Source of the DNA: a virus
Length of the DNA stretch: 64,000 bases
Virus record (IMG/VR): IMGVR_UViG_3300032268_000694
Location: 32,001-96,000 of that record
Direction: 5' to 3' (one strand)
Shown: in pieces, positions 55,271 to 57,040 of the stretch
Numbering within the stretch: position 1 is the first letter of the stretch
How the letters are laid out: every line of letters begins with the position of its first letter
The notes under the pieces: model-generated
What the model saw: only the letters and a program-made list of their open reading frames with translations
The model's database searches: none
What the model was told of the DNA's origin: nothing
Translations under genes and position numbers: made by a program

Positions 55271-57040
55271 ATGAGAAGCGTACTTTTAGCGACAGATTTA
55301 ATTAGAAAAGGTGATGGTAGTTGGACACCAACAGAAATCAATACCAATGCTGGGCACTTGATTCCTTTTGACTATCCTACTGATCCTGTTGCTCAACCTG
55401 TTGTTGATTTTATGCCAAATTTCGCTCCTTTTTTCAATCATGTAGAATTTAATAATTTTTTACAAACTAATGGTATTACAAAGCTTATAGTGATTGATAA
55501 AGCTGGTAGTATGGGTGTAGTGTTTGAATCTTTTGCAGGTTATTATAATTACCAATATGAATTAGTAATTGCTGTTGAAGGTAGTTTAACTATACCTAAT
55601 ATTAATGATGCTGATGATGTTTTTATTATAAGAGTTGCATATGATGTTAGTGCATTAGTAGATGATTTATATGCACGAGATATGTTTGAATTTCATAACC
55701 TAATAAAAGATGAATCGTTTGCTTCCCCAGTAACTTTTAATATAGATGGCGAAAATAATATTGATACTATTACTGAATTTGAACCATCAATAGATGGAAT
55801 AGTACCTAATTACCTTATTAAGCCTAGAACCCCAGGATACGCAAAAGGTGACTATCCAAAACTTTACAGATTAGATACTGCTGAAGAATTAGATGCTTTA
55901 AAAGCAAATATTACCGAAAATGAGTTTATTCAAAAATATGAATACAATGAAGTATTAGGTACAGTTGATAACCGAACTTCTTTTATTAGAAGTATGGATT
56001 TAGTATATGGCCCAAATTTAGATGTAATGAATGTTATTACATATAAAGCTATGAATGCTGTATCAACACAAAATTCATTACTACAATATGAAAGTGAAGT
56101 ATTACCTGGTAAAAGATTAGATCCACTTTTTGCAACTAAATGGTTACCTAAGCATTTCCTATTAAATGACAGATTATTTCACTTTGATGCTACTGATAGT
56201 ATACTAATGCCAGATGGAACAGATAAAATTGCATCTGAATTAATAATCAATGAAGAAATACTTGGCATAAGTTTCAATCAGGCGATAAAACAATTTAAAT
56301 CTTCTCCTGTTAGCACATTAGAAACATATACAACCGGTAGTTCTCCTATAAGTGTTATAACAAGAAACAGTTTAAATTGTATATTTGTTAATATATCTGC
56401 TGTTGATAGTGATGATAATCAATATAATTGGTATGATGGTATAGGTAATTTATATCTAATGCAAAAAGTAGGTTCATCTAATGCCCAGTACGTTTCTCAA
56501 ACATCTGGATTTATAGAAGTTGGAGATGCTATATTTGTATTTGATACACTAAATAATACAACTAAACCCTTAACAGTTACTTCTATTCATTATGATATTA
56601 AAAACATACCAACTTACAAAATATCTCTTGGTGGTGAATTTAAAGAATTTATGATTAAATTAGATGAAAATATTTATCTAGTACAACACAACGCCCAATG
56701 TATTGAAGGTTGTGGACAATATGTATTTTGTAATAACTATTATTGTTTTGGATGTGGTAAATATGATTTTAACTGCCCAAACTGTTCTTTCACTTACGGA
56801 CAGGGAGTTGCTTGCTTCTCAGACAGAAGATTAAAAGAAAATATTGTATTGGTAGGTACATCACCAAACGGAATTAACATTTATCAATTTAATTATATTG
56901 AAACAGAAGGATTATATGAAGGTGTTATAGCACAAGATTTATTAAATACTCCATTCGAAGATGTAGTATCCTTAGATGAAAGTGGATTCTATAAAGTAGA
57001 TTACTCTAAAATAGATGTTGAACTTAAAAAAATAAGCTAA
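55271..57040 (+). CDS. ATP-grasp-like / Hint / Cys-rich peptide / S74 chaperone fusion protein
   Basis: TDLI...TEINTN, YLIKP and FIQKY (ATP-grasp); HFDATDSILMPDG...LVQHN (Hint); 8-Cys peptide; SDRRLKENI...GVIAQD...VDY (S74). Confidence 0.7.
   Translation: MRSVLLATDLIRKGDGSWTPTEINTNAGHLIPFDYPTDPVAQPVVDFMPNFAPFFNHVEFNNFLQTNGITKLIVIDKAGSMGVVFESFAGYYNYQYELVIAVEGSLTIPNINDADDVFIIRVAYDVSALVDDLYARDMFEFHNLIKDESFASPVTFNIDGENNIDTITEFEPSIDGIVPNYLIKPRTPGYAKGDYPKLYRLDTAEELDALKANITENEFIQKYEYNEVLGTVDNRTSFIRSMDLVYGPNLDVMNVITYKAMNAVSTQNSLLQYESEVLPGKRLDPLFATKWLPKHFLLNDRLFHFDATDSILMPDGTDKIASELIINEEILGISFNQAIKQFKSSPVSTLETYTTGSSPISVITRNSLNCIFVNISAVDSDDNQYNWYDGIGNLYLMQKVGSSNAQYVSQTSGFIEVGDAIFVFDTLNNTTKPLTVTSIHYDIKNIPTYKISLGGEFKEFMIKLDENIYLVQHNAQCIEGCGQYVFCNNYYCFGCGKYDFNCPNCSFTYGQGVACFSDRRLKENIVLVGTSPNGINIYQFNYIETEGLYEGVIAQDLLNTPFEDVVSLDESGFYKVDYSKIDVELKKIS

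Follow-up and report, generated by a model that had tools for sequence, protein, structure and literature searches.

A widespread viral protein family that joins an ATP-grasp ligase domain, a Hint domain, a variable cysteine-rich peptide and a peptidase S74 domain

Why would a virus encode a ligase, a relative of inteins, a small cysteine-rich peptide and a self-cleaving chaperone in a single polypeptide? The question is raised by an ORF (55271..57040, + strand; 589 aa in four segments) within a 64,000-nucleotide stretch of viral DNA, which we refer to as the window. The tail sheath gene follows ∼2.5 kb downstream of this ORF. An initial annotation, made from the letters and the ORF translations, read this gene as a one-gene self-processing peptide system. 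The peptide strings that it quoted for the ORF are all present in the sequence, and its four domain calls were all borne out by structure models, fold searches, Pfam and PHROG searches and homologue alignments. The fusion protein is an ATP-grasp ligase domain, a Hint domain, a variable 8-Cys peptide and an S74 domain in one polypeptide.

To place this protein within a family, we assembled a set of at least 249 distinct homologous sequences, with conservation at individual columns taken from 79-80 diverse members. The C-terminal architectures of the 249 fall into several types: 143 stop after the Cys-rich core, 90 run into an S74 domain, 8 carry a second Hint domain at the core boundary and 8 have other long tails. 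Variants of the fusion gene in other metagenome runs preserve the reading frame by paired 1-nt indels. A scan of GTDB genomes, using patterns that reach close relatives only, gave a single match, in a Pelagibacterales MAG, where the contig is 3.7 kb long. Among cultured phages, tblastn with the fusion protein matched only the S74 tails of Brucella phage structural proteins, and the family profile, which recovers the window's own fusion gene at 2.5e-174, gave no match at E <= 0.01 in Flavobacterium phage immuto, the nearest cultured relative by tail sheath. A PDB sequence search with the single fusion protein found nothing, and the family profile retrieved weak intein matches only (best E 0.005) and no ATP-grasp enzyme. 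Every source naming a homologue has it as a "hypothetical protein", and no description of an ATP-grasp-Hint-Cys-peptide fusion was found in the open-access and bioRxiv literature searched. The conclusion that the fusion proteins constitute a large, widespread and undescribed virus family is well supported.

The Hint domain (aa 304-474; 56180..56692, + strand) was defined by structural alignment and homologue columns. Its best match in VIA-align was an intein (Z 15.5, rmsd 2.2 Å, 145 residues); the bacterial intein-like domain of C. thermocellum scored Z 15.2 and hedgehog Z 14.5, and residues 303/304..474 of the model align with the intein from residue 1 through its terminal Asn. Foldseek (E 8.8e-7) gave Tetrahymena BUBL BIL2 as the top match; the fold is thus common to BIL domains, hedgehog, pretoxin-HINT and BUBL BIL2. 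The terminal His-Asn that Hint and BIL domains use for C-terminal cleavage by Asn cyclisation is also present, as His473-Asn474 (56687-56692, + strand), making N474|A475 the predicted scissile bond. Across the family, the terminal Asn is found in 249 of 249 distinct homologues and the His-Asn pair in 243. The window's protein has His304 at position 1, as first described. Among 79 homologues the six commonest residues at this position are H (43), K (11), S (6), I (5), L (4) and T (3), with no Cys, and among 239 the +1 residue is A (80), Y (40), F (23), G (19), P (17), S (12) or one of several others, Cys occurring once. No conserved Cys, Ser or Thr was found at position 1 (79 homologues) or at +1 (239 homologues), and we therefore expect neither splicing nor a thioester, with cleavage alone possible; the missing nucleophiles rule out a splicing intein as the identity of aa 304-474. 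The Thr-x-x-His of block B is not visible in the window's Hint segment, and D389 is conserved in 76 of 79 homologues. As in pretoxin-HINT proteins, the domain directly precedes a variable C-terminal module. Unlike other BIL and Hint domains, it is placed behind an ATP-grasp enzyme, an arrangement that we did not find described in the literature searched.

The C-terminus of the protein is a Peptidase S74 intramolecular-chaperone autoprotease domain (aa 517-589; 56819..57037, + strand), identified by Pfam, PHROGs and a conserved motif. The Pfam match (Peptidase_S74, PF13884, at 517-565) is a marginal pass, with 22.6 bits against a cut-off of 22; the same family matches 15 of 80 homologues (best E 1.2e-6), and the C-termini of PHROG virion proteins match aa 517-589 at E 8.8e-12. 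The Ser, Asp and Lys(+5) of the Ser-Asp-x3-Lys motif are conserved in all 90 S74 forms, and the short S74 domain proposed to begin at Ser517 is supported by these three lines of evidence. Ser517 (56819-56821) and Lys522 (56834-56836, both + strand), the predicted catalytic dyad, as in endosialidases, put the predicted scissile bond at F516|S517. The module resembles the S74 domains of endosialidases, tail spikes and fibres in its Pfam match, its motif and its place at the end of the protein. However, it follows a 42-residue Cys-rich peptide, whereas known S74 domains normally serve trimeric fibres, and it is dispensable in this family, being absent from the 143 stop-type forms.

The alternative C-termini bear on where the peptide ends. 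The 143 shorter homologues have their stop codon in the region where the 90 others begin the S74 Ser, and in close homologues the S74 Ser stands one residue after the last Cys, which is the stop-codon site of the short forms (..CN|SD vs ..CN-stop). Family-wide the boundaries are looser, the core ending one residue after the last Cys in 50 of 90 S74 forms and in only 28 of 142 stop forms. The view of stop, S74 and second Hint as three interchangeable C-terminal delimiters has to be softened, since in seven of the eight second-Hint forms the extra domain is a canonical intein-like insertion, with Cys1, TxxH and His-Asn, and a short tail that contains Lys comes after it. We also considered the core as a general structural element that precedes S74 domains, and this found no support among 14 short S74 proteins checked outside the family, some of which have unrelated Cys-rich stretches and one of which resembles a fragment of the fusion family.

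The segment between the two predicted cleavage sites (aa 475-516, 42 aa; 56693..56818, + strand) has the eight Cys originally counted after His-Asn, at positions 477, 481, 487, 492, 495, 502, 505 and 515, with a kernel of C492-x2-C495-G-K497-x4-C502-x2-C505. The structure model is unreliable in this core (pLDDT below 50). The number of Cys is even in 237 of 241 cores, with 4, 6, 8, 10, 12 and 14 all occurring (6 in 61 cores, 10 in 17), a count that, like those of conservation, does not represent independent events because the homologous sequences are related. Even counts fit pairwise disulfides better than four-Cys zinc sites; the alternative is that the two CxxC motifs of the core could bind zinc rather than form disulfides. 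Most of the conserved core positions are Cys; in the 8-Cys class Gly496 and Lys497 are conserved as well. In cores with 6, 10 or 12 Cys, a Lys is found among the last four residues in 48 of 55 stop-ended and 27 of 27 S74-ended cases.

The remaining core positions vary strongly. Mean pairwise identity at non-Cys positions is 0.297, compared with 0.574, 0.471 and 0.685 in the flanking domains, the value of 0.471 belonging to the Hint interior, which is also variable. No variation was seen in the catalytic residues on either side: the terminal Asn is kept in 249/249 homologues and the S74 Ser, Asp and Lys(+5) in 90/90. Microdiversity differed between two 90%-identity clusters: in one the core was the most variable part, and in the other the Hint domain was more variable (31% of columns vs 19% in the core). 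The expectation that the segment after HN is hypervariable yet Cys-rich between conserved flanks was therefore largely upheld by the comparison of homologues, with a mixed outcome for microdiversity.

Several known peptide systems share some of these properties. Graspetides and microviridins likewise tie an ATP-grasp enzyme genetically to a short variable peptide, and borosins hold enzyme and core peptide in one polypeptide, as the fusion protein does. In contrast to graspetides, the fusion protein has no leader peptide, its conserved core positions lack the Asp/Glu plus Ser/Thr/Lys pattern of acidic and hydroxyl or Lys residues used in cross-linking, and its precursor is fused rather than separate; in contrast to both graspetides and borosins, excision would be autocatalytic, without a separate protease. 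The RiPP-associated ATP-grasp enzyme 7mgv is a distant fold match only (Z 4.6). The core resembles knottins and cyclotides in its even, conserved Cys framework, its variable loops and its predicted release at Asn, but it has other Cys spacing and would depend on Hint-type Asn cyclisation instead of an asparaginyl endopeptidase, and we do not claim homology.

At the N-terminus, aa 1-300 (55271..56170, + strand) form a circularly permuted ATP-grasp domain of the GspS/glutathione-synthetase type, as judged from a structure model, fold searches and invariant columns. Residues 1-303 modelled alone gave a pLDDT of 92.6 and a pTM of 0.88. The best PDB matches of this model in Foldseek were YgiC (E 4e-6) and then YjfC, with glutathione-synthetase-like GSS30, yeast and human glutathione synthetase and E. 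coli glutathionylspermidine synthetase also among the best. In a search against 48,161 chains the first 29 rows were all ATP-grasp enzymes, the best Z of 8.4 being middling by the tool's scale. Whole-domain structural matches were best to GspS, the YgiC/YjfC peptide-spermidine ligases, eukaryotic glutathione synthetase and fungal Cp1B. Permuted ATP-grasp enzymes align over 1..295 of the model, whereas classical ones (RimK, LysX/ArgX, Ddl, PurK, TTLL) align over only ∼68..300, starting from their own residue 1. Thus, the permuted motif order read from the sequence is real, and it is an order already known in GspS and glutathione synthetase.

The invariant residues agree with this assignment. 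D9, E22, N24, R121, D131, N180, K184, P196 and R240 do not vary in 79-80 diverse homologues, and four of them are the predicted Mg/ATP residues: D9 (55295-55297), E22 (55334-55336), N24 (55340-55342) and K184 (55820-55822), all on the + strand. These four sit on model strands 2-12 (D9), 18-24 (E22/N24) and 181-185 (K184). In E. coli GspS, D318...E330-x-N332 comes first and YAVK533P later, and aa 1-300 likewise have D...ExN first and the xxKP strand later, so that D9, E22, N24 and K184 follow the order of D318, E330, N332 and K533, the functional residues of GspS. The FIQKY residues are less conserved (E218 in 46 and Q221 in 55 of 79), and Ala7 stands at the place of GspS Arg316. Because the residues of a ligase active site are conserved, the domain is probably an active enzyme.

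Sequence comparison gave little for this domain. No Pfam ATP-grasp family matched aa 1-303 or any of the 80 homologues, PF03738 (GSP_synth) was not found in the genome, and hhalign of the family against E. coli GspS gave a probability of 0.1 and no usable alignment, so that the comparison with GspS rests on motif order. ESM Atlas leads from the N-domain to ATP-grasp families at 0.93-0.94, with <170 shared features, and these are leads only. A fold without Pfam or profile similarity makes aa 1-300 a new sequence family within the ATP-grasp fold. In addition to having no detectable sequence similarity to other permuted ATP-grasp ligases, the domain is shorter (∼300 aa vs 370-620) and is fused to predicted autoproteases.

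The ATATTTAT motif reported upstream of the fusion gene is present at 55240..55247 (+ strand), 31 nt before the ATG. A further copy (54934..54941, + strand) lies 15 nt before the ATG of the adjacent partner gene, and the motif is found ahead of the tail sheath gene and of other genes too. The total in the window, 30 copies, is not above the 23 +/- 5.4 found in shuffles. The copies are nearly all on the + strand (28 of 30), and for 20 of these 28 an ORF starts within the next 70 nt; such upstream zones make up 7.8% of the window.

Taking conservation and structure models together, we consider it somewhat probable that the fusion protein is a self-processing precursor that releases a variable Cys-rich peptide and carries an active ATP-grasp ligase. 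The fusion gene would be expressed late in infection, probably, because its upstream motif is common to tail genes. The degenerate Hint domain, having lost its N-terminal nucleophile, would perform only the last step of intein chemistry, in which Asn474 cyclises with help from His473 and the N474|A475 bond is broken. The Ser517-Lys522 pair of the S74 domain would cut F516|S517, probably after oligomerisation, and the two cuts would yield a free 42-residue peptide whose eight Cys may pair as four disulfides on a scaffold strongly variable between phages. Excision of the peptide is partly supported by the comparative data, namely the stop/S74 boundary, the even Cys numbers and the variability of the core. 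The ATP-grasp domain would be an active amide ligase of the GspS/YgiC type. Such enzymes convert the C-terminal carboxylate of a peptide to an acyl-phosphate, which is then joined to an amine. The idea in the initial annotation that the ligase could cyclise the peptide, or attach it to a virion or host target, gained no support from the comparative data. The ligase may act on the released peptide or on a neighbouring zinc-ribbon-like protein, and the choice of substrate is the weakest step of this proposal.

That neighbour is encoded by a conserved partner gene (54949..55236, + strand; 95 aa), recognised by adjacency and alignment. Its product has six invariant Cys (C32, C35, C50, C53, C55 and C70) and a basic tail in which two hydrophobic residues come last, and its length ranges from 90 to 108 aa across the family, with a mean column identity of 47%. 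The partner gene is next to the fusion gene on the same strand at 60 of 63 loci, within 300 nt at 50, and is found upstream at 21 and downstream at 39; its presence on either side indicates that the linkage is kept despite rearrangement. Pfam gave no match for the window copy, tblastn with the partner found nothing in cultured phages, and ESM Atlas returned viral hypothetical clusters with a faint DUF6171 link; weak DUF6171 matches were seen in 21 of 37 family members. Of 973 neighbourhood ORFs, 454 have a C-terminal tail of the partner type, which goes with particular families: it is carried by 57 of 62 partners, 92 of 93 2OG oxygenases and 0 of 63 fusion proteins. A predicted complex of aa 1-516 with the partner scored 0.01, which speaks neither for nor against binding.

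The partner protein, which the initial annotation did not mention, may be the real partner of the ligase. In a form of this idea that we regard as rather unlikely, the ligase works with the partner, and perhaps with the tail-bearing enzymes, as carboxylate substrate or carrier, as LysX and ArgX do with LysW, and the Hint domain and Cys tail are a removable regulatory, docking or timing module, or an amine source. The same-strand adjacency on either side, the six invariant Cys and conserved tail of the partner and the distribution of that tail all point this way, as do the complexes of LysX/ArgX with LysW among the fold matches (Z 5.5-5.6). In addition, the structural neighbours of the ligase activate peptide C-terminal carboxylates, YgiC and YjfC being described as peptidylpolyamine synthetases (PMC12568646). 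However, adjacency alone is weak evidence for a physical or enzymatic link, and the zinc-ribbon matches of the partner family are weak and all below threshold. The partner also differs from a LysW-type carrier, a small zinc-ribbon protein serving an ATP-grasp ligase, in that its tail is basic, whereas that of LysW is acidic. Finally, this explanation leaves the variable yet always Cys-paired tail of the fusion protein unexplained.

A bolder version of the self-processing precursor, which we hold to be unlikely, is an autonomous one-polypeptide peptide factory of uncultured aquatic phages. Here the crippled intein and the S74 domain would excise a cystine-knot-like peptide, and the ligase would spend ATP to activate a C-terminal carboxylate and then either close the peptide head to tail, as in cyclotides, or join it through its new N-terminus or its conserved Lys to the shared tails of the zinc-ribbon-like partner and the tailoring enzymes. 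If true, the tail-joining version would amount to ubiquitin-like tagging by half an intein combined with a ligase, and the head-to-tail version would give a cyclotide-like product by new chemistry.

It is decidedly unlikely that the fusion protein is instead a structural component of the virion (a fibre, decoration or baseplate accessory, for example), with the S74 domain as folding chaperone, the Cys knot as an attached metal- or disulfide-stapled tip, and ATP-grasp and Hint parts that are mainly structural or receptor-binding. The closest resemblance of the S74 tail is to C-terminal parts of structural and tail-fibre proteins of virions (PHROGs; Brucella phage), and the gene has its upstream motif in common with the tail sheath gene that follows ∼2.5 kb downstream, but 143 of 249 homologues lack S74 and the structure model has no fibre-like repeat or helix ahead of it. 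Conserved ligase residues and a Hint domain that keeps its terminal Asn and penultimate His would be unexpected in purely structural relics. The lack of a match in phage immuto at E <= 0.01 suggests an accessory gene, although an empty answer shows little. Very unlikely is a polymorphic-toxin-type effector, in which the Hint domain only releases a small toxic or inhibitory peptide against the host or rival phages, ATP-grasp is an independent effector and the neighbour provides immunity or acts as a chaperone: in Pfam, the extra domains of some homologues match Pretoxin-HINT and other Hint families, and the variable C-terminus lies beside a tightly linked small gene, but no domain for secretion or trafficking is present, the protein beginning directly with the ATP-grasp core strand, and the partner is strongly conserved (47%) while the core varies, whereas a cognate immunity protein is expected to co-vary.

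If the reading as a self-processing precursor holds, these phages have a widespread, unannotated family whose members release disulfide-rich peptides of variable sequence solely by self-cleavage. Hint chemistry would then have a further role, limited to C-terminal cleavage and located behind an enzyme, and S74 would have one as a portable device for trimming C-termini. The family would also represent a new kind of link between an ATP-grasp ligase and a ribosomally made peptide. Small disulfide-rich peptides could be produced with a self-cleaving cassette of this kind. The linked small protein, and the tails that neighbouring enzymes share, suggest that these phages have a larger modification system, so far uncharacterised. 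Strong variation on a fixed Cys scaffold is the pattern of receptor-binding, inhibitory or toxic mini-proteins, and the peptides may therefore act in phage-host or phage-phage conflict.

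The fusion gene is an open reading frame of 589 codons on the + strand (55271..57040), read as an ATP-grasp domain (aa 1-300), a Hint domain (aa 304-474), a variable 8-Cys core (aa 475-516) and an S74 domain (aa 517-589), and every peptide string quoted in the initial annotation was located in it. Direct family scans of the 589-aa protein detect the final domain only, and no sequence-level link of the N-terminal domain to any ATP-grasp family was found. At the level of structure, the proposal of a permuted ATP-grasp fold was borne out. Residues 1-303, modelled alone from an 80-sequence alignment, gave a pLDDT of 92.6 and a pTM of 0.88, and the best PDB matches found by Foldseek were E. 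coli YgiC (E 4e-6) and YjfC and the glutathione-synthetase-like GSS30, together with yeast and human glutathione synthetase and E. coli glutathionylspermidine synthetase. When the model was compared with 48,161 chains independently of Foldseek, the first 29 rows were all ATP-grasp enzymes, the best with a Z of 8.4 (rmsd 4.8 Å, 218 residues), a value that the tool itself grades as middling. Permuted enzymes (eukaryotic glutathione synthetases, YgiC, GspS, trypanothione synthetase, 3n6x, 3k1t and Cp1B) aligned to model residues 1..295, whereas classical enzymes (RimK, LysX/ArgX, Ddl, PurK and TTLL) covered only about 68..300, starting from their own residue 1. By these ranges, the first 67 residues, in which a hairpin with D9, E22 and N24 sits, occupy the position of a segment that classical ATP-grasp enzymes have at the C-terminus. 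The motif order of E. coli GspS is the same: R316-x-D318...E330-x-N332 opens its synthetase domain and YAVK533P follows further on, corresponding to D9...E22-x-N24 and then YLIK184P in the window protein; in GspS, these residues bind Mg and ATP. The permutation is of this known GspS/glutathione-synthetase kind. In 79-80 sequences with identities down to 22%, no variation was seen at D9, E22, N24, R121, D131, N180, K184, P196 or R240, and this conservation argues for an active enzyme.

The full-length model (pLDDT 78) had the Tetrahymena BIL2 domain, hedgehog and many inteins as its top Foldseek matches. With VIA-align, the Hint domain scored a Z of 15.5 to an intein (rmsd 2.2 Å, 145 residues), 15.2 to a C. 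thermocellum bacterial intein-like domain and 14.5 to hedgehog, and model residues 303/304..474 spanned intein residue 1 through the terminal Asn. From 326 pooled sequences, 263 reached the end of a core profile and 249 of these were distinct; the Hint domain ended in Asn in all 249 and in His-Asn in 243. The six commonest residues at Hint position 1 among 79 sequences were H (43), K (11), S (6), I (5), L (4) and T (3), and the +1 residue was mainly Ala, Tyr, Phe or Gly. As read from its residues, the domain cannot splice or form a thioester, and it retains exactly those needed for Asn cyclisation, the C-terminal cleavage step of inteins, so that C-terminal cleavage is predicted. BIL2, its top structural neighbor, is reported to make an isopeptide bond to a Lys without ATP (PMC8616854).

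At the other end of the core, Pfam Peptidase_S74 matched residues 517-565 at 22.6 bits (cut-off 22), and PHROG virion structural, DNA-ejection and tail-fibre families matched residues 511-584 (best E 8.8e-12). In homologues the core is followed by a stop (143), an S74 domain (90), a second Hint domain (8) or another long tail (8). All 90 S74 forms keep the Ser, the Asp and a Lys five residues on. In close homologues the S74 Ser falls at the stop position of the short forms (e.g. ..CN|SD vs ..CN-stop); the fit is looser family-wide, where the end lies one residue past the last Cys in 50 of 90 S74 forms but in only 28 of 142 stop forms. Among the second-Hint forms (P0139, P0157, P0158, P0163, P0167, P0182, P0184; P0105), seven of the eight added domains are canonical intein-like (Cys1, TxxH, His-Asn), inserted after the core and ahead of a short tail that contains Lys, and the eighth is Vint-like without a terminal His-Asn. 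The seven carry tails such as KK or KKF, none with a +1 Cys, Ser or Thr, and in P0182 the two Hint domains are only 7 residues apart, with no Cys between them. By analogy with the chemistry reported for BIL2, these seven forms may perform Lys-directed or cleavage-only reactions. Taken together, what follows the core marks its C-terminal end as a functional boundary that is conserved, and this is the strongest comparative argument for release of the core as a separate peptide.

The segment following His-Asn is 21-86 residues long and Cys-rich. Excluding eight 'long_other' tails, 237 of 241 cores had an even number of Cys (0 in 2 cores, 4 in 3, 6 in 61, 8 in 144, 10 in 17, 12 in 9 and 14 in 1), and the remainder had 7 (3 cores) or 13 (1 core). 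Because these counts are even and not multiples of four, they favor disulfide pairs over four-Cys zinc sites, with the qualifications that the counted sequences are related and that the two CxxC motifs of the 8-Cys kernel would suit zinc too. Among 52 close S74-type homologues, mean pairwise identity was 0.574 in the ATP-grasp domain, 0.471 in Hint and 0.685 in S74, and 0.427 in the core, falling to 0.297 at non-Cys core positions. The picture within two 90%-identity clusters was mixed, with variable columns making up 5% of ATP-grasp, 12% of Hint and 26% of the core in one, and 10%, 31% and 19%, respectively, in the other. Family-wide, cores fall into two classes. In the 8-Cys class there is an internal C-G-K, and a Lys at the C-terminus is rare (9/84 among stop forms and 7/58 among S74 forms). 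In the class with 6, 10 or 12 Cys, a Lys is nearly always among the last four residues, in 36/43, 9/9 and 3/3 stop-ended and 13/13, 8/8 and 6/6 S74-ended cases, respectively.

We propose that the fusion protein is a self-processing precursor. Cyclisation of Asn474 would cut at N474|A475 and the S74 pair Ser517/Lys522 would cut at F516|S517, freeing a 42-residue peptide with, presumably, four disulfides. The ATP-grasp domain would be an active amide ligase that activates a C-terminal carboxylate, as its structural neighbors such as YgiC and YjfC, termed peptidylpolyamine synthetases (PMC12568646), do; it may act either on the peptide itself or on the partner protein's tail.

This partner, a conserved small zinc-ribbon-like protein of 90-108 aa (window 54949..55236), shares its strand with the fusion gene in 60 of 63 loci. 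The two genes are within 300 nt of each other in 50 loci, and the partner lies upstream of the fusion gene in 21 loci and downstream of it in 39. Its invariant residues are W11, R28, C32, C35, C50, C53, C55, K60, C70, P71 and W75, it ends in a basic tail with two hydrophobic residues last, and its only matches, all sub-threshold, were to DUF6171 (21/37 members) and zinc ribbons. Other common neighbors are 2OG-Fe(II) oxygenases (93 ORFs in 46 loci) and sulfotransferase-like proteins. Around the fusion gene (52377-54728, 57181-58634), sequence reading points to APS kinase, nucleotidyltransferase, sulfotransferase-like and related modification enzymes; of the window ORFs there, the sulfotransferase-like and SGNH-like ones alone grouped with neighbors from other loci. 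Unrelated neighbor families, including oxygenases, sulfotransferase-like proteins and the partner (window 42924-57882 and 92-742; loci L001-L062), have a common C-terminal tail, with a basic residue among the final eight positions and two hydrophobic residues at the very end. Of 973 neighborhood ORFs, 454 have the tail, and its distribution is family-specific: 92/93 oxygenases and 57/62 partners carry it, against 0/63 fusion proteins and 0-9% of the members of several other families. In the window it is found on 7 of 65 ORFs. It may serve as a tag for docking, targeting or recognition by a ligase. Single members of the fusion-family alignment had weak Pfam matches to PDZ (E 0.0017), AXH (2 members) and DrmE_C, the first of note because the shared tails resemble PDZ ligands. 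Cyanophage arrays of dioxygenases with sulfotransferases have been described as peptide-modification clusters, in passages from which the fusion architecture is absent (Iyer et al. 2010, PMC2938197).

The motif ATATTTAT lies 31 nt before the fusion gene (55240) and 15 nt before the partner gene (54934). Of 30 copies in the window, 28 are on the + strand (others at 58642, 59452 and 61238, for example), and 20 of these 28 precede an ORF start by 8-67 nt, often by about 29-32 nt, with the tail sheath gene among the ORFs so preceded; the zone ≤70 nt upstream of ORF starts makes up 7.8% of the window. By position and strand, ATATTTAT acts as a promoter-type element would.

Relatives of the fusion protein numbered 140 in a word-indexed search. 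When 1.84 billion representatives were scanned exhaustively with HMMER, there were 36 matches at E ≤ 1e-30 and 3013 at E ≤ 1e-3, many of the weaker ones covering the S74 tail alone. Wherever a source gives a family member a name, that name is 'hypothetical protein'. A pattern scan of IMG/VR yielded 62 viral loci, the window's own record (119 kb, about 70% complete) has one copy, and a scan of prokaryotes at one genome per species gave a single match, on a short MAG contig. Matches in a collection of 50,697 cultured-phage records were confined to the S74 tail, and a PDB sequence search gave none. By tail sheath, the nearest cultured relative is Flavobacterium phage immuto (50% identity), in which the family profile had no match at E ≤ 0.01. 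Upstream of its tail sheath gene, immuto has tail-fibre, lysozyme and hypothetical genes; because the family was not found there, the fusion module looks like an accessory insertion. The separate parts, namely Hint autoprocessing, S74, permuted ATP-grasp ligases and enzyme-core fusions, are already known, and in borosins enzyme and core peptide are fused. No description of the ATP-grasp-Hint-Cys-peptide-S74 combination was found in the literature searched, in Pfam or in the sources' own names. The fusion architecture is widespread, well supported and directly testable by expression and mass spectrometry.
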